Below, one piece after another: positions 9,114 through 63,404 of a stretch of 64,000 nt of DNA. Both the position numbers and the translations under genes were made by a program. Source of the stretch: a virus. A model generated the notes under the pieces. The model saw only the letters and a program-made list of their open reading frames with translations. It made no database searches and was not told where the DNA came from. The DNA lies in the IMG/VR virus record IMGVR_UViG_3300031548_000001, positions 31,021-95,020 of that record. One strand, written 5' to 3'. Numbering within the stretch: position 1 is the stretch's first letter; every line of letters begins with the position of its first letter.

Positions 9114-9128
9114 CACCTGAAAAACCGC

Positions 9129-10264: not shown

Positions 10265-10543
10265 TCAATTTGAGCAGCGGGCCCGGCGAATACGGCTCTT
10301 GCGAACCATGCGCTGACACTCGCGCATCATGCCCCAAATCTTCGGAGGGCGTGAGGTTCCCATAAGCATGTAATCACTCCGCCGACGACGACGGACCTCA
10401 AACGGAACGATAACCTGCGCAGGTGCTGTTGGCACCGGATTGGATGGCGCGTGCTGAGCCGCAGGCGCTGGCGCGTATGTGATCGCCTGCGCGGGAGCCG
10501 GCGCAACAGCTGAAGAGAATAGGGAAAGCAGTTCGATAATCAT
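10265..10543 (-). CDS. Hypothetical protein
   Basis: ATGA overlap with the upstream gene. Confidence 0.45.
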   Translation of the reverse strand: MIIELLSLFSSAVAPAPAQAITYAPAPAAQHAPSNPVPTAPAQVIVPFEVRRRRRSDYMLMGTSRPPKIWGMMRECQRMVRKSRIRRARCSN

Positions 10544-10869: not shown

Positions 10870-11429
10870 TCGGTGTAGTCGGCGTTGGTGACGGGTGCGG
10901 AACGGCGGTTGGCTCGGCGGCCGTTTGCGATGCCGAAGATGATGTCGATCTCAGCAACGAAGCTCAGGTCGTTGATCTCCGACATGCGGCACTCCGTCGT
11001 GAACTGCTCGCTCAGTAGCTGAATCGGATGCCCTCCCTTAAGCAGCGGCGTTCCGTCTTTGCGGTGCAGCGTAAGCAAGGTGTCGGACTCGCCGGTGCTT
11101 GGGCTGATCTCGATCGCATCCATGACCTTTTCGACCCAGTTGTAGAGGCCGTCCTTTTGGGTGGGGTCCATCGATACCCAGCCATTCTTGCGGCTTGTCT
11201 TCACGAAAAGCGTGATTCGGCCATCCGTGCGACCGACGCTATCCTTGATGCCCAGTTCGGTCATTGTGACCTGCGGCAGGTCCTTTTCACCGTCGATTCG
11301 GTATTCACCGTTGGGCTTAACCTTCAGGCCATCGAGCAAGCCGTTTGGCTTGTCGTTACCCGCATCAACAGGCCGGGCTTGAAGCTCAAGGCGTGTCCAG
11401 ACTTCACGAAGTGCAGCTACGTAGATCAT
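10866..11429 (-). CDS. Tail terminator-like protein
   Basis: Position after the gp10-like neck gene. Confidence 0.55.
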   Translation of the reverse strand: MIYVAALREVWTRLELQARPVDAGNDKPNGLLDGLKVKPNGEYRIDGEKDLPQVTMTELGIKDSVGRTDGRITLFVKTSRKNGWVSMDPTQKDGLYNWVEKVMDAIEISPSTGESDTLLTLHRKDGTPLLKGGHPIQLLSEQFTTECRMSEINDLSFVAEIDIIFGIANGRRANRRSAPVTNADYTE

Positions 11430-11929
11430 TTGATGAGTTTCTCCAAAAAGGATTTCACTTGGTTTTTAAGAATCTCCATGGCTCGAGGCCTGAACTTTTC
11501 GACGATGTGCATGGCCTTGATACCGCGGACACGGCGGGCGAGGTAGTAGTCCCGGCCGAACTTGAGCGCCGCATTCCAGCCACCGATCGCAGCGCGAGAG
11601 TTGAGCGGCACGAAGAGGTATTTTTTCGACTTCGGATAGATGTAGCCGCCGTGGCTCGTAGCCGTGCCCGCATTGCCGGTGCCGTGCTCAAGCCAATTCA
11701 TCGCCTTCGAGTTGTTGAACACCAGGCGCTGGGCGATTCCGGTTTTCTCAACTTTCCACTCACGCCGAGTGATGCCTGTATATCGTTTTGGCGTCAGTTC
11801 GACGAGCTCGCGGTAAACCTTCCAGCCGGCGATTTCCACCGGTTGATCAAACGCCTCGTCACGGAGCGCATTGAGCATGACGCCGATCTTCTGTTCGGCG
11901 TCACCGGTGCTGAAATCGGTCGAGAACAT
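11426..11929 (-). CDS. HK97 gp10-like neck protein
   Basis: TP..TG..RR.W, LEHGT, IYPK motifs. Confidence 0.75.
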   Translation of the reverse strand: MFSTDFSTGDAEQKIGVMLNALRDEAFDQPVEIAGWKVYRELVELTPKRYTGITRREWKVEKTGIAQRLVFNNSKAMNWLEHGTGNAGTATSHGGYIYPKSKKYLFVPLNSRAAIGGWNAALKFGRDYYLARRVRGIKAMHIVEKFRPRAMEILKNQVKSFLEKLIK

Positions 11930-12561
11930 CAGATCACCTGCATGCGGTAGCGGTTGAGTGATCCGGTCAGGTCAGGCGGCAGATTACGCACTGTCGCCAC
12001 TTGGCGAGAGCCATCAGCCGCAACGAACTCGCGCTTCACCAAGCCGCTGCGGATCGCCGCCAACACACGGCAGACGGTGCCCACTTCCTGAGGCAGATCC
12101 GTGCACGGCACCGCCAAGGGCGTCGTGGTCGCTGGCGTGAAACCAAACACACCCGTGAGCTCGATACGTGGGGGCAAGGCAAACGTGCGATTGGATCCGA
12201 AATAGGCCTGCTGTTTCTGCCAGCGACCGATCCGGATGATCTTGGCTGTCGACCGCGGCACGCTGTTTTCAAACGTGTATTGATCGGTCGCCAGCTCCAC
12301 ACCGTCCACCGTGATCTTCGTGAGCGTCCGCACCGGCATCGGCAGATAGATTACGTTTTCCGCGCACCAGCCAGAAAGCACCGACAAAGGAGACGAAGCG
12401 TGATCATGAGCGAGGAAGTCGCGGCGGCAGTAGTCATCAATCCATCGGCTCGCCCAGTTGATCTCGCTCTGTAGATCTGCGACAGAGTCCGGAGTGTCGT
12501 TGCGGGTCTCGGTCTGCACCTCTTTGAGCGTGCAGTAGGGATTGAGGAGCGTGGTGCTCAT
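11929..12561 (-). CDS. Head-tail adaptor
   Basis: YCTL.EV, I..ASRWID.YC.R.F motifs. Confidence 0.8.
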   Translation of the reverse strand: MSTTLLNPYCTLKEVQTETRNDTPDSVADLQSEINWASRWIDDYCRRDFLAHDHASSPLSVLSGWCAENVIYLPMPVRTLTKITVDGVELATDQYTFENSVPRSTAKIIRIGRWQKQQAYFGSNRTFALPPRIELTGVFGFTPATTTPLAVPCTDLPQEVGTVCRVLAAIRSGLVKREFVAADGSRQVATVRNLPPDLTGSLNRYRMQVI

Positions 12562-12779
12562 GCGGTGTTGATGGTGATTGCGGATTTATTCTGCATCGCA
12601 GCGCGGCATGAGGGCAGGTGAGCTGCGCGATATTTCTTCATCTCTTCATCGAAATCGCGCACGACCGCGGCACGGCCCGCGCTGTTTGCGACGTTCAGGC
12701 GGCGGATAAGCAGGTCGCGTGTGGGGTTATCGAGAGGTGAGTCTTCGATCTGTTTTGCGAGTTTTTCTGGGCTGGACAT
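12558..12779 (-). CDS. Hypothetical protein
   Basis: MSSPEKL start after a CCCGAA leader; the longer ORF-track start would cross a terminator. Confidence 0.5.
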   Translation of the reverse strand: MSSPEKLAKQIEDSPLDNPTRDLLIRRLNVANSAGRAAVVRDFDEEMKKYRAAHLPSCRAAMQNKSAITINTA

Positions 12780-12825
12780 GGCTTCATTTCGTTTCGGGTT
12801 CGGGTGTGCTCGGACGCTGACAAAC

Positions 12826-12855
12826 AAAAAAGGGGCTCCTTGGTGTGGAGCCCCT
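12826..12855 (-). terminator. Intrinsic terminator
   Basis: AGGGGCTCC/GGAGCCCCT + U-run. Confidence 0.8.
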
Positions 12856-12864
12856 GCGTGAAAG

Positions 12865-13077
12865 TTATTCGTTGCCACCAGGGTTGGTGTCGTCGGCATC
12901 GGCTGGCACTTTATCGCCAGGCTTGGACGCCTTATCCTTGACCGGCTTGAACTGCTCGGGGGCGTGCTTTAACAAGCCTTCGCCCTGCTTTTCGGTGACC
13001 TCGATCACATCGCCATTTTTGACGATGCCGACGCCAGCCAGATTCTGCTCCTCTTTACCAACGTAACGGAATTTCAT
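12865..13077 (-). CDS. Small capsid-associated protein
   Basis: 70 aa downstream of MCP, GDVIEV motif, leader and terminator present. Confidence 0.6.
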   Translation of the reverse strand: MKFRYVGKEEQNLAGVGIVKNGDVIEVTEKQGEGLLKHAPEQFKPVKDKASKPGDKVPADADDTNPGGNE

Positions 13078-13173
13078 TTCAGGTTTTGTTTCGGGTTTCT
13101 GCGACTGCCAGTGAATCCGGCAGCACTCGTTCTGTATCCAAATTTCAAATATCGATTGAGCAGCCCTATAGTC

Positions 13174-13236
13174 AAGAGAAACCCGGCCCCCTTCAGGCCG
13201 GGTTTCATACCCTGAAATGAACTGATCTATCCCGAC
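13174..13236 (-). ncRNA. Candidate sRNA antisense to the phage CCCGAA/CCTGAA-ATGAA start motif
   Basis: TTGACG -35 at 13271-13266; predicted +1 at 13236; seed GAUCAGUUCAUUUCAGGGUAU; terminator hairpin GAAACCCGGCC/GGCCGGGUUUC-UCUU; no ORF. Confidence 0.6.
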
Positions 13237-13282
13237 GCGATTACGTGTTGAGGCAAAAACGAGTTCGTCAATCTATTCGCAC

Positions 13283-13316
13283 AAAAAAGGCCCGGACCAA
13301 TGACGGCCCGGGCCTT
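13283..13316 (-). terminator. Intrinsic terminator after MCP
   Basis: AAGGCCCGG/CCGGGCCTT + U-run. Confidence 0.8.
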
Positions 13317-13339
13317 CGAATCACTCAACTACCGGCTCT

Positions 13340-14920
13340 TTAGCTCGCGTAGTTGTAGCCGAGAACGGCCGCCTTGGTGTTGGCGAGCGACTCGATGGGC
13401 TTGAAGGCGCGGCGGAATGAACCAACCACGAACTTCTGCTGGAGGCTGATGTCCTTGTCCTGCTCGATCATGAAGCCGCGGCGGACGCCCATGATCCAAG
13501 CGGGCTTATAGACGATGAAGATCGAACCCTTGGTGGTGGTCACGCCGTCGTAAACACCGGAGGCGTTGAGGTCTTCACGGACGGCAGCCGAGGCGAGGAT
13601 GTCCATGCCGAAGAGGTTCGGCGCGAGACCGGTGAAGATGCGGGCCGTAGCCTTGTCGCCAGCCTTCTCGGCGGTGAGGGTTTCGGGCAGCATCACGAGG
13701 TCGTTGTAGGCATTGACGCCGGCAACGATCATCAGGTTCTTCGGGTTGAGGCCCCAACGCTTGAGCGCCTTGCGGAGCACGCCGATGTTGCTCGCGGACA
13801 AGCCGCCAGTGGCCAGCGAGATCTTCAGGTCAGCCTGAGCGAGAGCCAGCTTGCGGATACCGTCGAACAGCTTCGCTTGGTGGCGAGCCACGGCATGGAT
13901 GTCCGAGTCTTGGTGCGTCGCGGCGGTGTCACCGTTGATAACAGCGTTTTCGAGCGCTTCGGCGGCAGCCTCACCCAGCTGGGAGAGGATGTTCGGGAGA
14001 ATCGCGATGAGCGAATCTTCGTCGGCCTCGTAGCTGTATTTGACCTTGCCGATGAGCTTCTTCGCCTGGAGGACCAGGTCATCGGTGCCGGGATCGCTCT
14101 CGTCAGGGGTGCCACCCTCGGAACCGGTGTAGAACGTCGGACGGGAGGTGGACAGCGGGTAGGTGTAGTTGTCCGAAGGCATCTGGACCTCGTTCGCCGT
14201 AAGGGCGGCGGCGAGTTGGGACTCCAGATACATGCGGGCGAGGAGCGTGCTGGACAGGGTGGTGTTCATCCACTCGGCACCAGTGCTGGCTCCGGTCGTG
14301 GTGATCGCCTTCTGGGCGTTCACGCCACCAACGCGCAGACGGCCGACGATGCTCTTGACGCGTGCTTCGCCACGGCGCTCGGCATCCTTCAGGACGGAAT
14401 CCTGAATGCCTTCGTTGATGAAGTCGGCGCCCTTCGTCATGACGTTGAGCAGCTGCTTGGCGTCCACCGACAAGTTACCGGCGCGGTGAGCGATCGGGAA
14501 CTCGATGGAGGTGTCATCGTTGTCCTGATGCTGTATCTTGGAGTCCTTGCGGAAACCCTTCAGGGCCTCTGTGACGATGCCCTTGACGTCATCGGACGTG
14601 ATGGTGGCAGGCATGGCAGCTTTGACCTTCTGTGCGAGGGCATCGGCATCGAGGTTCTCGGGCTTGATGCCCTTGACGGCGTCGGCGACGATGGTCTTCA
14701 CCTGTGCTTCGGTGAGGGTGTTGCCGGCGGGGAGAGCGGCCTTAACGGCGTCCTCGACGGTCTTCTTGACGTCCTCGGCGCTCATGCCGTCGTCATCTTT
14801 GACGGCGTTGGCTTTGGCTTGGAGAGCGTTGAGCTCCTTGATTTCGTCGGCGGTGCGATCGGCGACGGCTTTGCTCATGAGTTCCATGAGGCGTTTAAGT
14901 TCTGCGGCGGTGAGTTTCAT
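13340..14920 (-). CDS. Major capsid protein (HK97 fold) with N-terminal scaffold region
   Basis: 526 aa; helical N-terminus; SEG..P.ES, L.AKKL, LENAVINGDT and FDGIRK motifs; after the protease gene. Confidence 0.92.
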   Translation of the reverse strand: MKLTAAELKRLMELMSKAVADRTADEIKELNALQAKANAVKDDDGMSAEDVKKTVEDAVKAALPAGNTLTEAQVKTIVADAVKGIKPENLDADALAQKVKAAMPATITSDDVKGIVTEALKGFRKDSKIQHQDNDDTSIEFPIAHRAGNLSVDAKQLLNVMTKGADFINEGIQDSVLKDAERRGEARVKSIVGRLRVGGVNAQKAITTTGASTGAEWMNTTLSSTLLARMYLESQLAAALTANEVQMPSDNYTYPLSTSRPTFYTGSEGGTPDESDPGTDDLVLQAKKLIGKVKYSYEADEDSLIAILPNILSQLGEAAAEALENAVINGDTAATHQDSDIHAVARHQAKLFDGIRKLALAQADLKISLATGGLSASNIGVLRKALKRWGLNPKNLMIVAGVNAYNDLVMLPETLTAEKAGDKATARIFTGLAPNLFGMDILASAAVREDLNASGVYDGVTTTKGSIFIVYKPAWIMGVRRGFMIEQDKDISLQQKFVVGSFRRAFKPIESLANTKAAVLGYNYAS

Positions 14921-15022
14921 TTTTGGTTCTTTCGTTTCGGAATCAGGTGGTGGTTTCGTATCGTTTCGTTTCGGGTTCTCCTGCTACTCCCCGTGGGGTT
15001 TGGTCGCAGAACACAAAGTGGG

Positions 15023-15931
15023 TCACTCGGTCTTGAGGCTCGTCTGGTTGCGCCAGAACTTCGCGAAGGCCTTCCGGCAGTCGGCCACGCCGAGGCTGCT
15101 GGTATAGGCGAGCGAGTCCGGGTTCATCGGCACAGGCGTGAGGCTGATCTCGTATAGCTCGGCTTCCTCGATGCCGTAGCCGTCGTCCTTGTAATACCAG
15201 ATGCCGCCAATGCTCAGGCCCTTCAGGTGGCCCTCCATGAGCTTGAAGCGAACATCGCGCAGGCCGGGCGCGTTCGAGATGGCGCCACGCACAGCCAAGC
15301 CTGACTTGTCGGTGCCGATCTTCTCCCACGAGCCGGCGAGGTGATCGACGGCGTTGCGGTGGTCGATCAGGATGACCGGGTTCTTCTTGAACGCGGCCAA
15401 AGTCTTGTCGAAGGCGCCCGGCAGCACGTAGTCGCCGCCGCGGTCGCGCTCGGTCGTTCCGACGAACGTGGAGGCATAGCCCTCGATGATGACGTCACGG
15501 TAATCGACGATGCGCGTGGCCTTGTCGTCGCCAGGCACAGGCTCGGTGACGGCCACGGCCTTCTTGTCGCCATCGGTCGCGAGCTTAATCTCTGCGCCGA
15601 TCTCGAAGTTGCGCACGCGCTTCGCCTGCATGAGCGCCTTGGTGACTTCGAGGTCCGTGGCCTTCACGGTTATCTCGGTGTCGGTTACGAGCAGCACTCC
15701 CTCGCGGGATGGAACCGCCAGCTGAATGACGAGCGAGTCGCCCTCTACGCGAAGAGCCTTGCCGGCGACGCGCTCGCCCTCGGAGGCGAAGAACACAGCC
15801 TTACCGAGCAGCTCCTTGTGAGCATCAGTCTTAACGATTGCCGGAGCCGGGGGCGCGACTCGCTTCTGGCCTACGCGAAGAACTTTTGCGGGGGCGAGAG
15901 GAGTGCGTTTGACCTTGAGGATTGCCGGCAT
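15023..15931 (-). CDS. Prohead protease (HK97 type)
   Basis: EGYASTF, DRGGD.V.PGAF, LIDH, GLSIG, LYEISL..VP.N motifs. Confidence 0.92.
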   Translation of the reverse strand: MPAILKVKRTPLAPAKVLRVGQKRVAPPAPAIVKTDAHKELLGKAVFFASEGERVAGKALRVEGDSLVIQLAVPSREGVLLVTDTEITVKATDLEVTKALMQAKRVRNFEIGAEIKLATDGDKKAVAVTEPVPGDDKATRIVDYRDVIIEGYASTFVGTTERDRGGDYVLPGAFDKTLAAFKKNPVILIDHRNAVDHLAGSWEKIGTDKSGLAVRGAISNAPGLRDVRFKLMEGHLKGLSIGGIWYYKDDGYGIEEAELYEISLTPVPMNPDSLAYTSSLGVADCRKAFAKFWRNQTSLKTE

Positions 15932-15937
15932 GCATCT

Positions 15938-15966
15938 CGTGTCGAAATGCGGACGGGCTCTGTCAA
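15938..15966 (-). promoter_or_regulatory. Late-type promoter TTGACA-N17-GACACG
   Basis: After a terminator; ATG 6 nt downstream (leaderless). Confidence 0.55.
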
Positions 15967-15977
15967 ATTTGACGCAT

Positions 15978-16008
15978 AAAAAAAGCGCCGAAGTGTAATA
16001 TCGGCGCT
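15978..16008 (-). terminator. Intrinsic terminator after the fibre module
   Basis: AGCGCCGA/TCGGCGCT + U-run. Confidence 0.8.
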
Positions 16009-16034
16009 GATACCTAAGTAATCGGCTGAAGATT

Positions 16035-16481
16035 TTACTTCAGAATGTAGGTCTTCACGACGCGACCGATTATGTTTTTTTCGGTCACCCGGGTGCCGTC
16101 GTAGTGGGAATTGTGAAGACCGGTCGATATCCAGTCTTCGCCTTCGCGCTCGGCGATTTGGTGGAGGATGTTGATCGAGCCGGCGCGAAAGACCACGAGG
16201 TCGCCTTTGCGCAGCGCGGAATAAGCAGGCCTCTCCACCTGGACGTAAGCGACGATGCCGTCATCGTCTCCGCCCGGGATGTAGGGCTGCATCGAGCCGG
16301 TGCCCATGACTGCCACGAGATCATGACCCGTGAGGATGAGATGCTGAACTTCGTGCAAATCCACCTGCACGGTCTTCGGCAAGGCCGTGACTGCGTTGTG
16401 CTGGCGCTTGAGTTCACACATGGCGAGGAGTGAGAGGGCGAGGATGCAGGCGACGAGGGCGATGATGGCTGATGGTTTCAT
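16035..16481 (-). CDS. S26/S24-like signal peptidase, membrane anchored
   Basis: N-terminal TM helix (MKPSAIIALVACILALSLL), GTGSMQP catalytic Ser, KGDLVVF, ILHQI, IIGRV. Confidence 0.7.
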   Translation of the reverse strand: MKPSAIIALVACILALSLLAMCELKRQHNAVTALPKTVQVDLHEVQHLILTGHDLVAVMGTGSMQPYIPGGDDDGIVAYVQVERPAYSALRKGDLVVFRAGSINILHQIAEREGEDWISTGLHNSHYDGTRVTEKNIIGRVVKTYILK

Positions 16482-46849: not shown

Positions 46850-47109
46850 GATGGATTGCCGGGACCGTCGGCAGGTTCGATCGCTGCGAGTTCTGTGTTC
46901 ACCTTGGCGAGGGCGGCCTCGAGCTTGACCTTGCGGCACTCAAGCGTGCGGCGACGGTCTGAAGGGTGATGGCGGAAGCAGTAGCCATCGCGCCGCGGTT
47001 TGAATGGGCACGGGTGATCCGTGGTCCCAGGAAATTGCCGCTCGTGAAACCACTTGTTCTGAATGCGGGCCTTGCAGCCACCTCCGGTGATTGGGTAGTC
47101 GCGTCTCAT
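46846..47109 (-). CDS. Hypothetical protein
   Basis: C...C......GYC..H motif. Confidence 0.5.
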   Translation of the reverse strand: MRRDYPITGGGCKARIQNKWFHERQFPGTTDHPCPFKPRRDGYCFRHHPSDRRRTLECRKVKLEAALAKVNTELAAIEPADGPGNPS

Positions 47110-47459
47110 TTTTTGGAAATCACCTTCACCTCAACAGTGAGCAGTCCGGCCTTCAGCGGACCGAGCCGCCGGAACGCCGTCTTGCTGAGATCGACCACGC
47201 GGTTCAGATCGTTGCGCGGTCCGCGATCTGTCACAGTCACCACCACTTCACGGATGCCATGACGAATACGCAGCTTTGTGCCGAGCGGCCAACGGTTGCT
47301 GGCACAGGTCAAGGCCGACTGGGTGAAGCGCTCACCGTTGGCCATCACGCGGCCCTCGTGGCGATCGTGGTAGAACGAGGCGATCCCCACCACCGGCCGA
47401 GCCCGCAGGCTGACCGAGGTGAGGAGCAAGAGAACTGCGAGGATTAGGATGTATTTCAT
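47106..47459 (-). CDS. RlpA-like (DPBB) lytic transglycosylase with signal peptide
   Basis: GIASFY, ANGE.F...LT.A, P.GT, V.DRGP, DLS..AF. Confidence 0.9.
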   Translation of the reverse strand: MKYILILAVLLLLTSVSLRARPVVGIASFYHDRHEGRVMANGERFTQSALTCASNRWPLGTKLRIRHGIREVVVTVTDRGPRNDLNRVVDLSKTAFRRLGPLKAGLLTVEVKVISKK

Positions 47460-48179: not shown

Positions 48180-49874
48180 TCAGGCTAGAACAATTTTCTC
48201 CGGCTCTTTCGTAGGGATCGCGATCTTTCGAGACTTCAAGTAATCAATCGCCAGCTGCTTCACGCGCTGCGGGTCGGTCTCCACGATGTCAGGATTCGAT
48301 TCAACGCCTTCGTCCACGATGCCGACTGCCTGGGCGCTCTTGAGCCCGAGCACACTCGACATAGTCGGATCACTGCCGATGGGGGCCACAGGGAAGAACA
48401 CCTGCACCGATGCCTTCTGGCCGTCGCGAGCTAGACGCCCCACGAGCTGGTGGTGAATAGCTGGGCTCCAATCGAGTTCACCGAACACGAGCACTGAGCA
48501 CACGTCCTGCAGGCCGTTCATACCATCGCCGGACCGCAGGCTGATGACCATGAGATCCGTCCGGCCATCGATGAAGTCGCGCTTCGCCTTTTCCTTCTGC
48601 GTAGGGGATTCGTGGCCCGTGAAGAAGACGGGCTTCAGATCACGCAAACGATCCGCCCACACGTCATAGACGGCGCGGTGCCACCCGGCCAGCAGCACCT
48701 TCTCACCGGAGTCGATGAGCATGCGGACGAGTTCGGCAACGAACGGAGCTTTTGCCAGGCCGGTGGTCTGACGCATCTCCAAGTCGAACTTGCGGGCCGC
48801 TTGGCCGCGTTGCTCGAAGGTGCCGGTGAGGATCAGCCGTGCCAACTCATCGGCGGCGGACAGCCCTTTCTCGAACACGTTGCGGTCAAACTCCACGTCT
48901 TGAACGTAGCGGAGGATTGGCGGCAACTCGCGGCCCACGTCCTTGCGAGTCCGTCGAAGCATGAGCTTCTCGTTGCGCAGGAAGGCTCCGAGGGCCTCGG
49001 GCTGCTTTACTGTGAGCTTCCCGTAAATGTATTCGCCCCACTCGCGGGTGAACTCCTCTTTCGAGCCGAGGGCGTCCGGCGCGAGCAGGTTCATCACGTT
49101 CCAGACTTCGCCGCCGTAGTTGCACACCGGCGTTGCCGAGAGACCGAGCCGGAACGGCACCGTGCCATTGAGCATCTTCGCGGCTTTGTATTTCTGCGAT
49201 TCCTCAATGCGCAACTCTTGGATCTCGTCGTAGATCACGGAGCCGATCTTGCCGGCGAAGTAGCCCCACCACGCGTCGAGCTTCGAATACGAAATAACGT
49301 AAACGTCGGCGATGGGCAGCTTGTAGGGCTTCCGGCTCTTTATGATGTGGACCCACGCGCCCGGGATAAAGCGTTTGATCTCGTCCTCCCACTGCTTCGG
49401 CAGATGCGCCTTCACGACGATCAGCGCCGGGAGCGTGCGCTTATCCGTCAACGTGGCGATCGCCGAGACGGTCTTTCCGAGGCCGACCTCGTCGGCAAGC
49501 AGCAGGTGACCCTGCTTGAGGTAGAGTGAAGCCGCCAATGCCTGATACTCGCGGGGTGGGAATGCCAGGCTGAAGGAACTTGGCGAGCCCGGTGCCGACA
49601 TGATGGCGTCGAGTTCCGTCTGCTTCTGGCGATGGCCCGCCGCCGCAGTCGCGAGGTGTCGTGCGTCCACCGGCTCCAGTGTCATCGGGAATCGCACCAG
49701 CATCCATTCGAGGTCGTTGGCCACCTCGGGAGTGGCTACGATGCGCATCTCCGTCGCCACCTTCTGGTCGATGCGCGGGAAGATCCGCTTTAGGCGCATC
49801 GTGACGTCCGGCGTGGTGGTGATGACCCAGTGGCGCCGGACGGTGTCGAAACTGACTTTACCGTAGTTGCGCAT
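48180..49874 (-). CDS. SNF2-family helicase/ATPase
   Basis: LADEVGLGKT, DEIQ, LSATP, G.NGLQ, ELDW.P...Q..GR..R.GQ. Confidence 0.9.
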   Translation of the reverse strand: MRNYGKVSFDTVRRHWVITTTPDVTMRLKRIFPRIDQKVATEMRIVATPEVANDLEWMLVRFPMTLEPVDARHLATAAAGHRQKQTELDAIMSAPGSPSSFSLAFPPREYQALAASLYLKQGHLLLADEVGLGKTVSAIATLTDKRTLPALIVVKAHLPKQWEDEIKRFIPGAWVHIIKSRKPYKLPIADVYVISYSKLDAWWGYFAGKIGSVIYDEIQELRIEESQKYKAAKMLNGTVPFRLGLSATPVCNYGGEVWNVMNLLAPDALGSKEEFTREWGEYIYGKLTVKQPEALGAFLRNEKLMLRRTRKDVGRELPPILRYVQDVEFDRNVFEKGLSAADELARLILTGTFEQRGQAARKFDLEMRQTTGLAKAPFVAELVRMLIDSGEKVLLAGWHRAVYDVWADRLRDLKPVFFTGHESPTQKEKAKRDFIDGRTDLMVISLRSGDGMNGLQDVCSVLVFGELDWSPAIHHQLVGRLARDGQKASVQVFFPVAPIGSDPTMSSVLGLKSAQAVGIVDEGVESNPDIVETDPQRVKQLAIDYLKSRKIAIPTKEPEKIVLA

Positions 49875-49878
49875 GTTA

Positions 49879-51516
49879 TCAGGCCGCCGGCGCGGAGAGC
49901 ATTGGGAGCGAGTGGAGGCCAAGCTTGAGCGCGGTCCCGAAGTAGGCCGCAGCTTTCTTTTCGCCGAGTTCCTCAGCAGCTTCTTTTCCTGACTTGATCC
50001 ACCCACGCATGCGGCCGACTTCGACGTTGAGCGCGAGCGCGAAATCTTGGTTTAACCGGATGTGTAGATTCCCATTCTGGAATGCTCGAACATCGAAGAT
50101 GACCTTGGGCAATCCCTGTATGGTGCACATGAACTCGTGCCTTTCACCCGGGGACCAACAATTCTGTCGCCCTTGGTAGGTGAGGCGGTCGTCAGCGGTG
50201 TCGCAGTTGAAACCAAGGCAATGCGCGACGGTCAGGATGTCGCCAAGGAAGTCGGCTGCGGACTCAACGAGTTCGTGCCCACTAGAAAATTTGAGGCGGA
50301 TGCCACCAACACGTGCGAGCACGATTCGATATTCGAGCGCGATATGCGACGGCGTCTCTTCATTGTAACGCCACCGGTCGTAGGTGAAAACCCGGGCGTT
50401 GGACTTGTAGTTACGGACGTTGGCCTTATCGACCATCGTGTCGAAGGTTTCGAGGATCTGCTCGTCCAAGTAGGTGTTGGCGTTCTTAAGCACCCAGACG
50501 AGGATGGCCGCGATGTTGTCCACGGTGAAATCCACGTGGGCGCTTTTATTGAGGCGGTTCAGGATGGCGTTGCGCTTCTTCGTGGTCAGCCGGTTCGTGA
50601 TACTCTTCATGTGCCAGAAGAGCTCCTGCCAATAGGTGTTGCGCAGGCCGGCGAGACGGGACTTCAGGCATGCCGCGATCCGAACGGGAGAGACGTCGAA
50701 TTCCTTCAGGAGTTGGACGTCGAGTTGTTTCACCACGTCGTAGTTACGGCGGATGTTATCAAGCTCCTGATCGTAGAGGTTCACGAGTCGTTGGGGAAGG
50801 TCAGCACCCACCACTAGGCTCGTGAACTTGGCGGCTCGCTGCTCGGCATCACGTTCCGCTGCGGCCTCGGGAGATTCAGTGTCACCCCGCCACTTCGCCT
50901 TCAGTTCGGCAAACTCCTGCTCAAAGAAGCGATCGAAGGCATCGTCCGTCTCATCGGACATTTCGATTCGGATCAGGTGAACCTTGGCGCGGGCGGCCCG
51001 GTCCTCCGCATCGTAGAAATCAAATCGTCCGATGATCTCAAAAGCCGCCTCGCGGAACTTCAACGAGTCGGCGAGCTCCACCGATTTTTCCCAACGCTCC
51101 GGGATGACCAAGTAAACAAGCCGAGAGGATGATTCACGGATGATCTTCCGTGCCCAGGCCTCAAACTCGGAGTAGGGCGGGTTGCAGAACGTGACTTCGA
51201 CCTTCTTGTTCACTAAGCTCTGCTCGTGGAAGTCCGTGCCGACGATGAAAACGTCGTCCGGCAAACAGTCGCGCAGTATCGGGCTCTTTTCGATGGCGTA
51301 GAACTCGGAGAACTTCGCCTCCTTAAAGGCCTCCAAGACCTTCCCAGCGCCGGAGCCGATGTCCAAGACGGAGCCCAGATCGTGATACAATCGCCACTTC
51401 AACGTGCGCAGGTGGCTGATGTCGGCCATCATCTTCTCAATGATCTGCCGAGTGGTCGGGTAAAACTCAAAGTCCTGGCCGGACTCTTTCAGGTCGTTCA
51501 GTAGCGTAAGATTCAT
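49879..51516 (-). CDS. DNA adenine methyltransferase (DUF4942-like)
   Basis: FEFYPT, LDIGSGAG, NPPYSEF; C-terminal F.NGN.H. Confidence 0.85.
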   Translation of the reverse strand: MNLTLLNDLKESGQDFEFYPTTRQIIEKMMADISHLRTLKWRLYHDLGSVLDIGSGAGKVLEAFKEAKFSEFYAIEKSPILRDCLPDDVFIVGTDFHEQSLVNKKVEVTFCNPPYSEFEAWARKIIRESSSRLVYLVIPERWEKSVELADSLKFREAAFEIIGRFDFYDAEDRAARAKVHLIRIEMSDETDDAFDRFFEQEFAELKAKWRGDTESPEAAAERDAEQRAAKFTSLVVGADLPQRLVNLYDQELDNIRRNYDVVKQLDVQLLKEFDVSPVRIAACLKSRLAGLRNTYWQELFWHMKSITNRLTTKKRNAILNRLNKSAHVDFTVDNIAAILVWVLKNANTYLDEQILETFDTMVDKANVRNYKSNARVFTYDRWRYNEETPSHIALEYRIVLARVGGIRLKFSSGHELVESAADFLGDILTVAHCLGFNCDTADDRLTYQGRQNCWSPGERHEFMCTIQGLPKVIFDVRAFQNGNLHIRLNQDFALALNVEVGRMRGWIKSGKEAAEELGEKKAAAYFGTALKLGLHSLPMLSAPAA

Positions 51517-51554
51517 TTCGGGTTCGGATTCGGGTGTCTGACAAAAAACTAAAT

Positions 51555-52129: not shown

Positions 52130-52506
52130 GAAATCAGCAGGACCACAAAGGCACCCAGAAGCGAACCGAGCACAATCTGGCCGAAAACTCTGCGGTCGCC
52201 AGCCTGCGTCTCCGGCTTCGTCTTTGGAAAAGGCGACTCAGCCATCAGGGCTACGGGCGGGTGACCGTTCATCATCAGATAAAGCCAAAGTCGGCCGGTG
52301 AATAAAAACCGAAGGCGATCGCGAAAGGGGAATTCCCAGCACGATACGGTGTGTGTGCTACAACGGAAGCACGGCAAGTCTCGGCATTGCTCTTCCGTGA
52401 GGTTTTCAGGCCGCTTGTAGGTGAAGTTTTTTTCAGGAAACACCACCGCTTTGGCATCCAGCTTCTTCGGGACAAGGGCCGCTATCAATTTTTTGATCAG
52501 TTTCAT
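52114..52506 (-). CDS. Hypothetical protein
   Basis: C..LP....SCW.....R...LF.G..W...HPP; start at the leader ATG. Confidence 0.6.
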   Translation of the reverse strand: MKLIKKLIAALVPKKLDAKAVVFPEKNFTYKRPENLTEEQCRDLPCFRCSTHTVSCWEFPFRDRLRFLFTGRLWLYLMMNGHPPVALMAESPFPKTKPETQAGDRRVFGQIVLGSLLGAFVVLLISWLRR

Positions 52507-52527
52507 TTCAGGTTCGGGTTTCGGGTC

Positions 52528-52571
52528 TCTGACGGATGGGAGAATCTCCCTAGGTTGATTAAAGTAAAGAG
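52528..52571 (-). promoter_or_regulatory. Early-type promoter CTCTTTACT
   Basis: 29 nt to GTCAGA. Confidence 0.6.
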
Positions 52572-52593
52572 GAATCGAATTACGAAAGGGCAC

Positions 52594-52622
52594 AAAAAAA
52601 GCGCCTGCCGAAGCAGACGCTT
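52594..52622 (-). terminator. Intrinsic terminator after the KH gene
   Basis: GCGTCTGC-TTCG-GCAGGCGC + U7. Confidence 0.8.
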
Positions 52623-52643
52623 AGAGTAATGGGCTGTTAAGAC

Positions 52644-53240
52644 TTACTCTTTTTTCGAGAGCACAACACGAATCAACCGGCCATGGTTTTTGCCGATGCC
52701 ATCGAACAAATTTTTGATGGATCCGATCACGATACCGTCTTCGCCATAGTCAAAACGGCTCGGAGCACCTGTGATCTTATCTAAATTGTCCTCGTTCACG
52801 CGAACCTCGAAAATCGTCGTGTTTCCGATGTCGGTGCGGATGACCTTTGCGGAGTCAGGGCGATCCATGAACATCTCCACGGTCTTTTTCAGGAGGGCTT
52901 CGACCGGGGCCATATCCTTCGGCTGACTGAAAGACAGCGCCTTGGCGCCGCCAGTGACGTTCCGCGGGCCGCTCTCGTCTATACTGATATGGCTCTCTCG
53001 GTTGATCTGTTTCGCCAGGTTGCCAATGATCGCTTCCAGCGCCCGGAAATGCTTACCTTTGGCACCGATCACACGAGGAATGTCGTCCGGTGCGGTCTTT
53101 ATGATAAAAGCCACGAGCGGGCCATGGACAGATTGTGTGATTGAGACCTCCTTTGGTTTAACGACAACGCCCCGAACAAGGGAGAGGAGCATGTCGTTCA
53201 AATATGCAATAAGGTGATCGGTTTCGTGTATCGCGTTCAT
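52644..53240 (-). CDS. Tandem KH-domain (KhpA-like) RNA-binding protein
   Basis: Repeat 1: LV..VV.KP.EV.I...D..RVIGAKGKHFRAL..I (GxxG loop); repeat 2: D.P....V....N...ITG...G..IGSIK.L..GIG....R. Confidence 0.8.
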   Translation of the reverse strand: MNAIHETDHLIAYLNDMLLSLVRGVVVKPKEVSITQSVHGPLVAFIIKTAPDDIPRVIGAKGKHFRALEAIIGNLAKQINRESHISIDESGPRNVTGGAKALSFSQPKDMAPVEALLKKTVEMFMDRPDSAKVIRTDIGNTTIFEVRVNEDNLDKITGAPSRFDYGEDGIVIGSIKNLFDGIGKNHGRLIRVVLSKKE

Positions 53241-53266
53241 TTCGGTTTCGCTTTCAGTTAAAACGG

Positions 53267-53307
53267 TCTGACGACAAATCGCTAAACTGCTTGCGAATGC
53301 ATGTCAA
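53267..53307 (-). promoter_or_regulatory. Promoter TTGACA for the KH gene
   Basis: 29 nt to GTCAGA. Confidence 0.55.
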
Positions 53308-53352
53308 ACCATAGGCTTTCCCGTAGTTTTCATACGGGAAAGCACGGTGATT

Positions 53353-53856
53353 TTAACCGCTCTTGAGGTTGAATGTAACCTGACGCAAATCTTCCTGCGT
53401 CTCGGCGCTCTCGGAGTATTTACGAGCGAAACCCATTTTCACTTTCGTGCTCATGAGGTTCAGGTTCGTGTGGTCGATTTCCACTTTGAAGGAGATACCG
53501 ACCTTCGCAGCCTTCTCGCCGTCGGTGCCACCAGCGGCCTCGGCCGTGCGGCAGATTTCCTTCCAGCGGTTGGCCAGCTGCAAGGCGACTTGGGAAACCA
53601 CGAAGTCGGTGGTCGCGAGAAAGTTTTTCAACTCGGTCTCGGAGCATCCGGTGATCGTGGAAGCGACGGAGTCGACGCACTGCTGCACTTCACCATTGAG
53701 GCGAGGCGGCGCGACCGGTTCGTTGCTCGATTCTTGTTCACCGGCTGGCTGCTCGCCAGCGGGAAACTGTTCAACGACGGCGCCCGTGGGTTGGCCTTCG
53801 TGCTGCTGTTCGGTGCCGTGGTCTTCCGCCGCGGCAGCTGACGTTCTCTTTTTCAT
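53353..53856 (-). CDS. Hypothetical protein
   Basis: CCCGAA leader. Confidence 0.55.
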   Translation of the reverse strand: MKKRTSAAAAEDHGTEQQHEGQPTGAVVEQFPAGEQPAGEQESSNEPVAPPRLNGEVQQCVDSVASTITGCSETELKNFLATTDFVVSQVALQLANRWKEICRTAEAAGGTDGEKAAKVGISFKVEIDHTNLNLMSTKVKMGFARKYSESAETQEDLRQVTFNLKSG

Positions 53857-53890: not shown

Positions 53891-55657
53891 CTAACGGGTA
53901 AGGAACTTCCTCACCAAATTCTGCAGGAGCGCGGACTTTGTCACTTCCTCGCCATCGGTTGTCGAGCTTACGATCTTTGCTTTTTCGGACACGATCGCCC
54001 AGAGGTCGTCGTCGATTGTGCCAGGTGCGAGAAAGTAGTAAGCGTTGACGCAATCCTTCTGGCCGATGCGGTGCAGTCGGTCGATGGCCTGCTGGTGTTT
54101 CGTGTGGGTCCACATGAGTTCGGCGATGCCGATGTGCGAGCAGACACCTTGTAGACCATTGATGCCGAAACCGGCCGCGATGATCGAGCCTATGAACACG
54201 CGGCAGCGCTCATCCTTCGCGAACTTCTGGACCTCAGCGCCAACGTCTTTGCAGCCACCGAGCACGACGGCAGGACTCCATTTCTGCAGGCCCTTCACCA
54301 GAGCGGCCTGCACCTCCGGGTGATAGGCGTAGATGACAAACTTCTCGCCGGATTCGAGGAACGTGTCGATCCACTCGATGATCCACTCGACCTTGCCGCG
54401 ACCGGCGGCGGCCCGGAGCATTCCAATCTTGATCATCGCCATAGCCGAGGCCTGCCCATCTGTGAGCAGCGTGCCTTGATTCTGCATTACGACTGCTTTC
54501 GCGTCCTGCTCGATGCGGTCATACTCACCGCGATTGGTGAGTTCGCATTCGTAGATGGATTCGATCTTGTCCGGAAGCTCCTTGAGCACGTCCATCTTCT
54601 TACGACGGATGTAGCAAAGCTGGGTCAGTCGGCCATGCAGCTCCTTCGTGTTCGTGGCGCCGGTCATCTTCATGCCGAACTGGCCGCGCACGTATCCGCA
54701 GTAACGCACCATGAATTTATATTCGTTCTCGAAGTGGTGCATCAGGCCGAAGAAATTCAATGGTGCCAGCCACTCGGACGGATCATTCTCCACCGGGGTG
54801 CCGGACATGATGAAGCGCACCTTTGGATCACACAGTTGAGCGATCGCCGTTGCGGCCATCGACCGACGTGACTCTCTGCGCTTGATGAAGTGGCCTTCGT
54901 CGCAGGCGATACCGACCACCTTATTGAAGGTGGGGAAAAAGTATTTCTTCGTGTCCGCCGCAGCCTCCTTGCGCTCCTTGGCCTTCGGTGAGGCGAGCAT
55001 GAAGTTCACGTAGTTGTGCACCTCGGAGTAGCCCATGATCGTGATCTCGGCCAAGTCATTGGCTCGGACACTGGCCTTCCGGTGCGGAAGCCATTTGCGG
55101 CACTCAACCAGCCAGTTCTGCTTGAGCTTCACCGGGCACAGGATCAGCGCCGGGAATGCCTGGGACATCTCAAGCGCGGCCAGCGTTTGGAGTGACTTAC
55201 CAAGGCCCATGTCGTCGCCATTGTAGGCCCGCAGCTTATCGACCATGAAGCGGACGCCGACCTTCTGGTAATTCTTGAGCGCCTGCACCAGATGAGGGGC
55301 CGAGGGGATCTCGATTTCAACCTGCTCCTCGCTGGACGCCTGATCCTTCGCCGCGGCAGCCGCGATGCGCTTCATGTCCTCGCTCAACCGGGTGCGAGCG
55401 TCCTTGGTCGGGGTAATGCCCCAGCCGACGAGCTTGGTCAGGCACTTCGCCGCATCGTCGCCAGGCTGGATGTTCCACGAGTATCGGCGGGCGTCGTAAG
55501 ACTTCTGGCTGAGCTTCTTCACGAGCTCCACGCACATCAGGTATTCCTGACGTTCCTTCTGCATGTAACCGGCGTCGAAAGTCAGCGTGAACTCGCCGCC
55601 GACGAAGAAGAGAACACCCTTGCGGATGTTTTGTGAGACTTCGGCAGTCAGGCTCAT
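53891..55657 (-). CDS. SNF2/HARP-like helicase
   Basis: YQ..GV, DDMGLGKS, DEGH.IK, SGTP..N, Q..DR.HRIGQ. Confidence 0.9.
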   Translation of the reverse strand: MSLTAEVSQNIRKGVLFFVGGEFTLTFDAGYMQKERQEYLMCVELVKKLSQKSYDARRYSWNIQPGDDAAKCLTKLVGWGITPTKDARTRLSEDMKRIAAAAAKDQASSEEQVEIEIPSAPHLVQALKNYQKVGVRFMVDKLRAYNGDDMGLGKSLQTLAALEMSQAFPALILCPVKLKQNWLVECRKWLPHRKASVRANDLAEITIMGYSEVHNYVNFMLASPKAKERKEAAADTKKYFFPTFNKVVGIACDEGHFIKRRESRRSMAATAIAQLCDPKVRFIMSGTPVENDPSEWLAPLNFFGLMHHFENEYKFMVRYCGYVRGQFGMKMTGATNTKELHGRLTQLCYIRRKKMDVLKELPDKIESIYECELTNRGEYDRIEQDAKAVVMQNQGTLLTDGQASAMAMIKIGMLRAAAGRGKVEWIIEWIDTFLESGEKFVIYAYHPEVQAALVKGLQKWSPAVVLGGCKDVGAEVQKFAKDERCRVFIGSIIAAGFGINGLQGVCSHIGIAELMWTHTKHQQAIDRLHRIGQKDCVNAYYFLAPGTIDDDLWAIVSEKAKIVSSTTDGEEVTKSALLQNLVRKFLTR

Positions 55658-56115
55658 CCGGATACCTCCGATGACAGGATCTCTTGGCGAAACCACTTGC
55701 CTTGCTCTTTCCACACGAGGCGGAACTTGGCCCAATCGTGCTGACTGGCGGCGATCTTCAGGAACTCAAAACCACCCCGGAACGAGTGCGGACCCTTCAC
55801 TTCAACGAACAGATTCAAGTGAGGTATGTAAAAGTCTGGTTTATACCAGTCCCCATTTGAGATCCAAAGGCGGACCTTCTGCGCGATCACGACCTTGCCG
55901 GCAAACTCGACGCGCAGCATGTCCTGATACGCCAGCTCCAGCTTGTTCATCTTTTGCCGGGACTGGCGCACGCGGCGCTCGCTCGGCTTGGCCTCCACCT
56001 CTTTCGGGAGCATTGACGTGAGCGCCCGTGGTGCCCGCTGGGCAGCCAGCTGGGCCTGCACCTGCGGCATATACCTCGGGTGGATCTTGGAAAGGATGTC
56101 GTCTCGACGTGGCAT
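55654..56115 (-). CDS. DUF1064-like endonuclease
   Basis: NKLE..Y, YKPDF, EVKG. Confidence 0.75.
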   Translation of the reverse strand: MPRRDDILSKIHPRYMPQVQAQLAAQRAPRALTSMLPKEVEAKPSERRVRQSRQKMNKLELAYQDMLRVEFAGKVVIAQKVRLWISNGDWYKPDFYIPHLNLFVEVKGPHSFRGGFEFLKIAASQHDWAKFRLVWKEQGKWFRQEILSSEVSG

Positions 56116-58475: not shown

Positions 58476-58781
58476 CTACTCCTTTGGGAATAGGCGCTTC
58501 TTTAGGTGATATAGTAGGACTTGGTCGGCACGGCGGATGTGCTTACATTTCGCCTGGGCGCTGTGCGGCTTGATGACGCGCCGGGCGAGCAACGGCTGAA
58601 TGCGCATCTGGAAGTGCGGACAACTACACTCGCCGGAGAACTGCCATGATGTGAGGTCAACCGTGTGGTAAATGTTCGGGCCTTCGGAGCTTTGGAAGTG
58701 CCAGCGCGTCCAGTCATCGGAGATGACTTTGAGAATTCCGCATGCGGCTGCAGCACGCTCGTTCTCTGAGATTTCAGGCAT
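58476..58781 (-). CDS. SWIM zinc-finger protein
   Basis: Y.V.....CSCPHF...CKHI. Confidence 0.7.
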   Translation of the reverse strand: MPEISENERAAAACGILKVISDDWTRWHFQSSEGPNIYHTVDLTSWQFSGECSCPHFQMRIQPLLARRVIKPHSAQAKCKHIRRADQVLLYHLKKRLFPKE

Positions 58782-58809
58782 AAATTCATTTCGGATTCGG
58801 GTTCGGGTG

Positions 58810-58853
58810 TCTGACGTGGTTTAGAGACCACGAAGAATTATTAATGTAAAGAG
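58810..58853 (-). promoter_or_regulatory. Early-type promoter CTCTTTACA
   Basis: 29 nt to GTCAGA. Confidence 0.6.
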
Positions 58854-61464: not shown

Positions 61465-62862
61465 TCAACCTTTGTAGTCGATGACCACGGGCATGCCGTT
61501 TGGGTGGGTGTCGCAGACCTTGTAGCGCGGCTCGCCCTCGTAGATCTCGGCGAGGTTCACCTCGAACGGCGTCGAGCCCCCCGGGGCCATTACCTTCGTC
61601 ATCTTCGGCGCTGTAGCCTTGGCTTGAACTTCCAGCACGAACGCCATCGCATCGGTGGAGTAGCCGCCATCCATGATCACGTCAGCGCGGCACTCGTTCT
61701 TCGCATTGCGGCCAAAAATCCAGCCCCACGAGTAGGGCTTGCCGTCCTGACCCTTGTGACCATTGCGGGCCATCAAGTAGTCGGAGGCGCGGACCTTTTG
61801 GGCCAGCAGCTCGAAGCAGCCGACCGTCTTGTTGTGCTTCCGCCAAAAGTTCTTCATCGCCACGTCGCGCCTGTCCCCCTTCGTGGGCATCTTCACCTCC
61901 GGCACGATCCGCGCCAGTGCGCCCATCACCTGCCGCCATGGAAAGTCTTTCCCCTTCGGGTCATCTTCTGACACGAGCGCGAGGTCGGCGGGGGGAACCC
62001 TGCTGGCGGTCTCTGACGCACGCGCCTGTCGTTCCTCTTCCATCGCCGCAAGGTCGCCAGCATCAATGCCAGTCTCCTCACCATCACAAACGCCGACGGC
62101 TTCAGCCGGCGGGTTTAATCCTTTAGGATTAAACGTAGTATCTGCCTCTGCTTCTGCCTCTGCTTGTGTTGACGTAGTTGACAGATTCGTAGTTGTAGCC
62201 GGAAGCAACGCATTGGACTTCGTAAGTTGATCAATCAATGCGAGGACTTCGGGTGTCTTCCTGAACCAGTCTCCCTGTATGCGATGAACCGAAATGCATT
62301 CCTTTACAGCGACTACCTTACTTTCATTCCCTTCTATTATGGCCAGAATCTCAGCGTTCGCGTGTGCTTTCTTCGTTTCACTTAGGCGAGCCCAAGGATT
62401 AACACTGAAGCCAATTTTTACGCATCCGTTCGCAGCTACGAAAAACAAGTAGCCGTCTCGTAGTTTTGTCGTAGTTGGCTTCGTAGCTACGCTCGTAGCG
62501 ACCTTGGCGCGGTGCTCAGCCTGCTTCACGCGGAGGTATTCACGCCGAGCCTCGGTGTCCTGCTTGTCTCGATATTTCGCGTAATTGGTCAGCGCCCAGC
62601 CCCCGTCGATTTTGTATATGCGTCGGCCATCGTTCTCCGGTGACCTGGAGAACTGATCGGGCGATTCGAGGGTGGCGATCGCATCAATCGTTTCCTGCAT
62701 GCTCAGGCGGGCACGGTCGGCCAGGCCCGGGATTGATGCCTCGATGACGCCGTCTTTGTCCGCCATCGCCAGCAGGGTGATGAACAGGATGCGCGTGGGG
62801 TTCGCCTCGCGCCAGATCGTCGAGTCGAGGATGCTGGAATGCAGCTTGGTGAATCCGCTCAC
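61465..62862 (-). CDS. Replication initiator-like protein with an inserted T5orf172/GIY-YIG domain
   Basis: FTKL.SSIL.STIW...L.AMAD..G, PD..SRS...GRRI..GGW...NY..YR; internal YL.F....VKIG.S.NP..R...GDWF; GTGA overlap with the upstream gene. Confidence 0.7.
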   Translation of the reverse strand: MSGFTKLHSSILDSTIWREANPTRILFITLLAMADKDGVIEASIPGLADRARLSMQETIDAIATLESPDQFSRSPENDGRRIYKIDGGWALTNYAKYRDKQDTEARREYLRVKQAEHRAKVATSVATKPTTTKLRDGYLFFVAANGCVKIGFSVNPWARLSETKKAHANAEILAIIEGNESKVVAVKECISVHRIQGDWFRKTPEVLALIDQLTKSNALLPATTTNLSTTSTQAEAEAEADTTFNPKGLNPPAEAVGVCDGEETGIDAGDLAAMEEERQARASETASRVPPADLALVSEDDPKGKDFPWRQVMGALARIVPEVKMPTKGDRRDVAMKNFWRKHNKTVGCFELLAQKVRASDYLMARNGHKGQDGKPYSWGWIFGRNAKNECRADVIMDGGYSTDAMAFVLEVQAKATAPKMTKVMAPGGSTPFEVNLAEIYEGEPRYKVCDTHPNGMPVVIDYKG

Positions 62863-63404
62863 AGGGATGCCTCCAGCTTCGGGATTAAATCTTTCACATC
62901 TTCGATGTGTTGAGCCGTAAGCCTGAACCACTCGCCACGGACACGTAGGTCTGCAAAGTGCAGGTGAAGCATTTCTTCAACACGCGAGTCTGTTTTCTGC
63001 ACGAAAATCAATTCGATCTCAGGCTCCTCTGATTGAAGCGTTTTCTCGCGAAACTCTGGATGGTCCGAGATGCCGATTTTCACGTAACCATTACGAGCGT
63101 TACGCATCATGTATAATTTGGTGCGACGAAAGTTAGGAGCTTTTGTCGGAATAACGGAACTGACGCTTACCATTTCCGATTCCTGCTCCAGCCGGTTGTT
63201 CTGGTTGTAGCTTAATACGGCATCATCGCTCAAAGAGAGTGTGTTTTTAGCTGCCTGAAGGAACGTCTCTACGATTTCCCGTGACGGGACGTAGTAGAGG
63301 CCGTCAAACAGGAAGAAATTCCCATTATCGTCTTTTTCAGCGCGGAGAAAAACGGGACGTGGTTTTCTGTGAATTGTAATTCCAACTGTGCTTTTGTCGC
63401 TCAT
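62859..63404 (-). CDS. T5orf172/GIY-YIG domain protein
   Basis: LY.M.N...YVKIG.S..P..R..LQ, E..LH..F...R.RGEWF. Confidence 0.85.
   Translation of the reverse strand: MSDKSTVGITIHRKPRPVFLRAEKDDNGNFFLFDGLYYVPSREIVETFLQAAKNTLSLSDDAVLSYNQNNRLEQESEMVSVSSVIPTKAPNFRRTKLYMMRNARNGYVKIGISDHPEFREKTLQSEEPEIELIFVQKTDSRVEEMLHLHFADLRVRGEWFRLTAQHIEDVKDLIPKLEASL

Follow-up and report, generated by a model that had tools for sequence, protein, structure and literature searches.

Within the window, by which the whole analysed stretch of 64,000 nucleotides is meant (part of a 95-kb IMG/VR record, about 85% complete), a gene on the minus strand codes for a protein of 198 amino acids which, as judged from profile comparisons and a structural model, is composed of two type II KH domains in one chain. 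Together with its relatives it constitutes a small, unnamed and unannotated family present in phages and prophages. The function that we favor, at a probability of about 0.35, is that of a post-transcriptional RNA binder acting on the phage's own messages, with the repeat leaders found in front of many phage start codons as the best candidate target.

The assignment to the KH fold is based on sequence as well as on structure prediction. Here, the Pfam profile PF13083 (KH_KhpA-B) matches the 198-aa protein over residues 16-84, and in two stretches, with 45.4 bits and an E-value of 7.5e-12, which is above the curated cut-off of 32.1 bits. The C-terminal half alone stays below this cut-off at 17.3 bits (E 0.0045) and is aligned to profile positions 2-70 of 73. 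When both halves are compared to each other by hhalign, they are matched with 94% probability and an E-value of 1.5e-7, and an insertion of 8 residues in the C-terminal half lies exactly at the position of the GxxG motif of the N-terminal half. The AF2 model (17 sequences; pLDDT 85.8, pTM 0.82) displays the order alpha-beta-beta-alpha-alpha-beta twice. In the N domain the elements are helix 7-25, strands 33-39 and 42-48, helices 51-58 and 60-78 and strand 82-87; the same order is repeated over residues 111-196, where two strands, 160-163 and 166-169, occupy the place at which the loop of the C domain is expected. The parts of the protein are arranged on the DNA as follows.

52980..53222, minus strand: N-terminal type II KH domain, KhpA/KhpB-like (residues 7-87; PF13083 and structural match)
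53055..53066, minus strand: intact GxxG loop G59-A-K-G62, within IGAKG (residues 58-62)
52911..52979, minus strand: interdomain linker (residues 88-110), basic and partly of low confidence in the model
52653..52910, minus strand: diverged KH domain at the C terminus (residues 111-196); no other part of the protein is as conserved
52737..52766, minus strand: beta-hairpin insertion replacing GxxG (residues 159-168), conserved, 8-10 residues

Thus, the features of the protein named in the original prediction are recovered: a KhpA-like KH fold, a duplication of this fold within one chain, an intact IGAKG loop in the first repeat and an insertion in the corresponding loop of the second, which the model shapes as a beta-hairpin. 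Within the close family, G59, G62, K63 and H64 of the first loop are invariant. The C domain has no GxxG; its glycines G158 and G169 are separated by the hairpin, in which F163 and D168 are invariant and Y165 is nearly so, the adjacent G169 being invariant as well. Also the stretch around the hairpin and the following helix are mostly invariant. Distant members of the family lack the hairpin insertion and carry GRRG or GRSG at this place; therefore, the ancestor would have possessed two canonical KH domains, of which the second was remodelled in the present branch. The linker is highly basic, residues 93-108 having a pI of 11.2 compared to a pI of 8.8 for the whole protein. A KhpA-like groove, this overall charge and the very basic linker allow the prediction that the protein is almost certainly a binder of single-stranded nucleic acids.

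Among solved structures, the N domain is most similar to the KH domain of KhpB/EloR/Jag from T. thermophilus (PDB 9lrg; Z 10.6 using VIA-align, rmsd 2.1 over 77 residues), followed by Era (Z 9.3) and S3 (Z 9.2), so that the three span an rmsd of 2.1-3.4 over 77-85 residues. Only one domain is matched in these cases, and the phage protein contains no Jag-N, R3H, GTPase or S3 C-terminal domain. The DUF721 domain of DciA (7ykm) is found at rank 19 with a Z of 7.2, below KhpB and Era. Furthermore, the family profile matches the solved KhpA structure 7xqc with an E-value of 5.4e-5. A Foldseek search with the whole protein returned NusA chains at the top (E 9.8e-4, probability 0.95), and archaeal NusA2 was found as well.

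In bacteria without Hfq, KhpA and KhpB are increasingly recognised as RNA binders with a global role. The GxxG loop and the type II KH topology are common to the N domain and KhpA (YlqC/UPF0109, PF13083), which is known from Streptococcus pneumoniae, Clostridioides difficile and others. However, KhpA consists of one domain of about 80 residues, whereas the phage protein has two in 198 residues, the second with a hairpin instead of GxxG. Cellular KhpA is an RNA binder that forms dimers, either with itself or with KhpB, and it works as a dimer of KH domains (PMC11261784); in the phage protein both domains are part of one chain. The phage gene is not located in the rpsP-khpA-trmD setting of KhpA, and no KhpB partner of the phage protein is known. 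Against the KhpA equivalogs NF002761, NF001748 and NF002201 the protein scores 46, 33.9 and 29.5 bits, the cut-offs being 106, 106 and 85. Given these scores, its size and its genomic context, the phage protein is not an orthologue of KhpA. With respect to architecture, archaeal NusA, which has two KH domains only, is the nearest example of a free two-KH protein: like NusA KH1-KH2, the phage protein carries two type II KH domains in tandem in one chain. Nevertheless, the archaeal NusA profile TIGR01952 is matched by the C domain only, with 17.8 bits (E 0.0032) versus a cut-off of 74.35.

The tandem-KH family comprises 17 clusters at 90% identity. At 50% identity, 77 representatives were collected (E <= 0.001), about 40 of which are full-length tandem proteins of roughly 200 residues. 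All members are metagenomic, and where a source names them at all, it is as 'YlqC' (JGI: 'predicted RNA-binding protein YlqC'). The 198-aa protein has no match in PHROGs; among GenBank phages, tblastn yielded no relative beyond one weak partial match, and megablast with 15 kb of the phage gave none. Locus scans using P0046 and P0056 as queries found nothing, and a scan for the SNF2 neighbour described below returned only the two contigs already known. The protein itself (P0001) is recorded identically on a second contig of 294,103 bp, which may represent an integrated copy in a host chromosome, and the protein P0005 is carried by a contig of 91 kb. Two further proteins resemble the tandem arrangement. 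In BFVD, A0A6J5PF67 of an uncultured Caudovirales phage is aligned over both domains (Foldseek E 1.1e-7, TM 0.55/0.62, 201 columns), and the nearest ESM Atlas cluster is a viral KH protein of 191 aa with 92 members, 96% of them viral, whose feature score of 0.84 is a lead only. Therefore, the two-KH architecture recurs in phages; both examples are uncharacterised and add range but no function.

The host can be deduced from an integrated relative. In the Opitutaceae genome G026, a prophage of at least 50 kb (C18:414590-464852; loci L068-L071 and L066) lies inside a contig of 949 kb and has 28 proteins in common with the present phage in a largely kept order, including the SNF2 helicase, the 167-aa neighbour, the KH gene, SSB and the capsid protein. 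Because this collinear prophage resides in an Opitutaceae contig, the host belongs to the Opitutaceae (Verrucomicrobiota) and the phage type is able to integrate. A further KH relative is located on a contig binned with an Opitutus MAG (G001). Of 401 genomes of the order, 1 contains the tandem gene, and of 31 genomes of the family, 2 do so, in each case on phage-like DNA; among the genomes searched, the tandem form is restricted to phages and prophages and is never a cellular gene. A single-domain cellular KhpA is present in 240 of 401 Verrucomicrobiota genomes, which therefore offer plausible cellular ancestors for the N domain. In the 31 Opitutaceae genomes (G001, G007-G036), neither Hfq (0/31) nor ProQ (0/31) was found, and no cellular KhpA either, as both KhpA-type matches over the cut-off are the phage-borne tandem genes. 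Thus, Opitutaceae may be devoid of all three types of RNA chaperone searched for. The 16S rRNA of Opitutaceae has the usual anti-Shine-Dalgarno end.

In the window, the KH gene is surrounded by genes for a primase-helicase, a beta clamp, two SNF2 helicases and a methyltransferase. Two genes precede it.

53891..55735, minus strand: SNF2-family helicase, first in the conserved order
53353..53856, minus strand: acidic protein of 167 aa, directly upstream of the KH gene

G006, G001 and the G026 prophage all show the order SNF2 helicase, 167-aa gene and KH gene, and the 167-aa protein stands beside the KH gene in each of them. Its model shows a disordered N-terminal stretch of 51 residues, two helices and a three-stranded sheet. 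Neither Pfam nor NCBIfam gave a match for it, the best structural hit has a Z of 4.2 and no fold is recognisable; the prediction of a complex with the KH protein yielded no verdict (score 0.00). In a more distant phage fragment, L057 (IMGVR_UViG_3300012200_000007, 3560-16370), a KH relative of 25% identity follows an SF2 helicase and a Toprim protein.

Some other genes of the window are of interest in their own right. At 62859-63404 (minus strand) a protein of 181 aa is encoded that contains a domain of the MUG113/T5orf172 type (E 1.3e-13); this nuclease-like family is related to GIY-YIG and occurs commonly in phages. At 47106-47459 (minus strand) a protein of 117 aa with a DPBB_1 (RlpA-like lytic transglycosylase) domain (E 4.5e-16) is encoded among early genes, and the place of its homologue is kept in the G026 prophage. 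At 48180-51516 (minus strand) a DUF4942 methyltransferase-like gene overlaps the start of the second SNF2 helicase gene; these two may form a DNA-modification or anti-restriction pair.

The KH gene itself appears to be a transcription unit of its own, with the following elements in the order of the minus strand.

53353, minus strand: stop of the upstream gene
53343-53315, minus strand: terminator-like hairpin of 11 pairs, 6 of them G-C, which ends the upstream 167-aa gene
53307-53302, minus strand: TTGACA, a -35-like box, also present in L058 and L061
53284-53279, minus strand: TAGCGA, a weak -10-like hexamer 17 nt past TTGACA
53272-53267, minus strand: GTCAGA, putative transcription start region, 29 nt past TTGACA and 6 nt past TAGCGA
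53266-53241, minus strand: 5' leader of 26 nt with three GAA units (CTGAAA, GCGAAA, CCGAAA) abutting the ATG, without Shine-Dalgarno sequence
52644..53240, minus strand: tandem-KH coding sequence (P0001) as read from the open reading frame, ATG at 53240, TAA stop
52622..52590, minus strand: intrinsic-terminator-like hairpin (10 pairs, 52622-52599) with T-run, ending the KH unit

This layout, the main elements of which had been noted on first reading, is not specific to the window. The hairpin at 53315..53343, which isolates the unit on its 5' side, has an equivalent at the same place in L058 and L002, and a terminator at the place of 52590..52622 is found 3' of the KH unit in the relatives. 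In those that were read (38-71% identity), the KH gene is flanked by terminators on both sides. Before the KH gene, L058 (71% identity) and L061 (38%) have TTGACA, 17 nt and TATCAA, and L061 displays the full arrangement of TTGACA, 29 nt and GTCAGA. As promoter layout and flanking terminators recur in this way, the KH gene is a conserved stand-alone unit. A consensus promoter scan made no call in front of the KH gene, since the -10 hexamer TAGCGA is poor. The conservation in the relatives suggests that the promoter would be functional and that transcription would start at GTCAGA. In 6 of 7 distinct relatives read, the KH gene is preceded by its own repeat leader, and the leader at 53241..53266 is a degenerate member of the ACCCGAA leader family that extends over the whole phage.

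Within the 95-kb genome, ACCCGAA is present 81 times on the gene (minus) strand versus once on the plus strand. A typical leader reads (G)TCAGA-CA-CCCGAA-CCCGAA-ATG. At least two units are found at about 35 of 117 crude gene starts, compared to a Shine-Dalgarno-like sequence at only 10. Three examples of ACCCGAA/CCGAA repeats abutting start codons are given here.

51516-51542, minus strand: example leader
52506-52533, minus strand: example leader
58781-58815, minus strand: example leader

Leaders are also found in front of internal genes located immediately behind a coding region. In the Opitutus MAG (5.3 Mb), 25 of 29 tandem motifs are located on three phage-like contigs. In G026, the leader variant ACCTGAACATG is concentrated in the prophage, which contains 5 of the 8 sites, and tandem units number 8/1 (plus/minus strand) in the prophage versus 0/1 in the flank. 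Because of this concentration on phage DNA in two Opitutaceae genomes, the leader is a signal private to the phage rather than one of the host. It cannot act by Shine-Dalgarno pairing, since it contains no Shine-Dalgarno sequence and the anti-Shine-Dalgarno end of the host is normal. On the same grounds, a host-wide ribosome signal was rejected as an explanation for the leaders. The promoter of a phage T7-type RNA polymerase was likewise set aside; no such polymerase was found, in a search whose control was blank.

All tandem-KH phages with readable context possess strand-specific repeat leaders without Shine-Dalgarno sequence at their start codons. The type of the leader varies: ACCCGAA in the present phage, G006, G001 and the fragments L058-L061, ACCTGAAC in G026 and AACAAAAC in L057, where the latter is present 19 times on one strand and not on the other. 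The L057 phage is devoid of ACCCGAA; its leader without Shine-Dalgarno sequence, AACAAAACAAAATG, is used by at least 8 genes, and AACAAAA is counted 19 times on the gene strand and 0 times on the other. It is suggestive that these three variants match three branches of the KH family. A scan of IMG/VR with a 16-mer of the leader returned 43 stretches, most of them with few motifs and judged to be chance, and few leader-rich contigs. The leader-rich fragments G002-G005 contain neither the KH gene nor the 167-aa neighbour; they do not cover the relevant region and are therefore uninformative on co-occurrence. Thus, the expected association of gene and leader is seen in every relative with readable context, yet these belong to one clade with conserved gene order, so that shared descent explains the association equally well and it does not count as independent evidence.

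The original prediction had included a third component, an antisense small RNA encoded at 13.2 kb. Indeed, an ORF-free unit at about 13174-13271 (minus strand) follows the terminator of the capsid gene and consists of TTGACG, 29 nt, a G-rich start and a terminator. G001 and G006 carry a unit built alike in the corresponding position (L105:3100-3270; in L106 on the reverse strand, downstream of the capsid gene), and the small-RNA unit is probably real. Rfam has no family in the window. The antisense part fared less well: compared to shuffled sequences, the predicted pairing to leader and start regions reaches a z of about 2 in this phage and about 1 in G001 and is absent in G006, and the exact seed of the small RNA does not occur on the gene strand of G006. 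Based on such complementarity, an antisense action on the leaders is weakly supported.

How could the KH protein act? KH domains bind about 4 nt of extended single-stranded RNA or DNA, and tandem domains extend the specificity (PMC11261784). In the mechanism that we propose, this phage-specific single-chain two-KH protein would be transcribed alone, within the region of early and replication genes and with a promoter of the host type. Its N domain would use the canonical GxxG groove and its C domain the conserved aromatic hairpin, and both jointly would hold about 8-12 nt of unstructured A/C-rich RNA. A/C-rich ligands are typical of KH domains, as in PCBP, Nova and NusA KH1-KH2. The target would be the C(C/T)GAA repeat leaders abutting about 35 start codons of the phage, that of the KH gene included, and binding may modulate translation or stability, similar to T4 RegA or KhpA/KhpB. 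We infer RNA rather than single-stranded DNA, the leaders as target and the direction of the effect. RNA and the phage's own leaders are favored because these leaders are phage-private, unstructured, A/C-rich and without Shine-Dalgarno sequence despite a normal host anti-Shine-Dalgarno end; both are further favored by the strong -35 box of the gene's own promoter and by the lack of Hfq, ProQ and KhpA in the host genomes searched. Against a role at the leaders stands the second domain, which has no canonical GxxG loop. Furthermore, unstructured A/C-rich leaders could work via the host ribosomal protein S1 alone, without a phage factor.

In phage T4, the protein RegA acts at the start regions of many early mRNAs and represses them. 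The likeness would be one of proposed action, a small phage protein on the start regions of several messages including its own; the fold of RegA is unrelated to that of the KH protein and no sequence similarity was found. In view of RegA, the earlier statement that a regulon of this kind is not recognised from described phages was too strong. Literature searches turned up no phage-encoded KhpA-like factor with a defined role. A more far-reaching version, which we consider quite unlikely, is that the protein is a dedicated reader of a phage-private translation signal (ACCCGAA, ACCTGAAC or AACAAAAC depending on the lineage). It would recruit or license host ribosomes on messages without Shine-Dalgarno sequence, or shut them off late, and the leader variant and the hairpin of the C domain would co-evolve.

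Other functions have to be weighed against binding of the phage's own leaders. A general RNA chaperone or a factor for the takeover of host RNA, of low specificity and without a tie to the leaders, would supply a KhpA-like activity or sequester host transcripts. The nearest sequence family, KhpA/KhpB, consists of broad RNA binders (PMC11261784), the 31 Opitutaceae genomes contain no Hfq, ProQ or cellular KhpA, and the KhpA genes of the phylum are at hand as plausible ancestors of the N domain; nevertheless, the best conserved part of the protein is the C domain with its invariant hairpin, which suggests a specific ligand or partner, and the tandem form is found solely on phage or prophage DNA. 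We consider such a general role unlikely. A mimic titrating the KhpA of the host is less likely, as the Opitutaceae searched have no cellular KhpA. 

Eukaryotic KH proteins bind C-rich single-stranded DNA, and in DciA and DnaA, KH-like domains function at the replicative helicase. The phage protein might accordingly be an accessory of the replication or recombination module that binds C-rich single-stranded DNA and aids a helicase or the primase, for which we also see a low probability. This role stays alive because helicase, primase and clamp genes are constant neighbours of the KH gene, even in L057: the gene lies among the primase-helicase, clamp, SNF2 and methyltransferase genes, its order with the SNF2 and 167-aa genes is kept in three relatives, the L057 relative follows an SF2 helicase and a Toprim protein, and the KH-like domain of DciA is among the structural matches. 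However, phage early regions mix replication and takeover genes, so that the neighbourhood is weak evidence; the KH gene stands apart from the helicase operon, with a putative promoter and terminators to itself, and sequence and fold appear nearest to the RNA-binding proteins KhpA, KhpB, Era and S3, not to DciA. The phage also already encodes a canonical SSB (PF00436, G000:7747-8061, E 3.5e-37). For this reason, and since the KH protein has no OB fold in the AF2 model, a substitute for SSB was rejected. Improbable as well is a NusA-like factor, which would bind with KH1-KH2 to the nascent leader near the transcription start and alter pausing or terminator read-through. NusA and archaeal NusA2 lead the Foldseek matches of the whole protein, the NCBIfam model nusA_arch weakly matches the C domain, the leaders begin at the inferred start, the genome is split into units by intrinsic terminators, and the SNF2 neighbour recalls RapA, which is an RNA-polymerase-associated protein. 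Yet TM-scores of 0.22-0.25 and an rmsd of about 12 A suggest that the packing of the domains differs from NusA, the nusA_arch score is far under its 74-bit cut-off, and a domain for binding RNA polymerase is absent. Leaders are also located before internal genes that follow a coding region, which fits better to translation.

Even if the link between protein and leaders fails, this is an unannotated phage family that needs a name. Binding of the phage's own leaders by the KH protein is attractive for further work, since a small protein that folds well and has a canonical KH groove as well as a remodelled one represents a clean experimental system, for which about 35 near-identical, phage-restricted leaders without Shine-Dalgarno sequence are available as candidate ligands in a host family seemingly without the usual RNA chaperones. 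If true, it would reveal how a phage labels its messages so that they are controlled separately after transcription, and would provide a sequence-specific bacterial KH-RNA pair.
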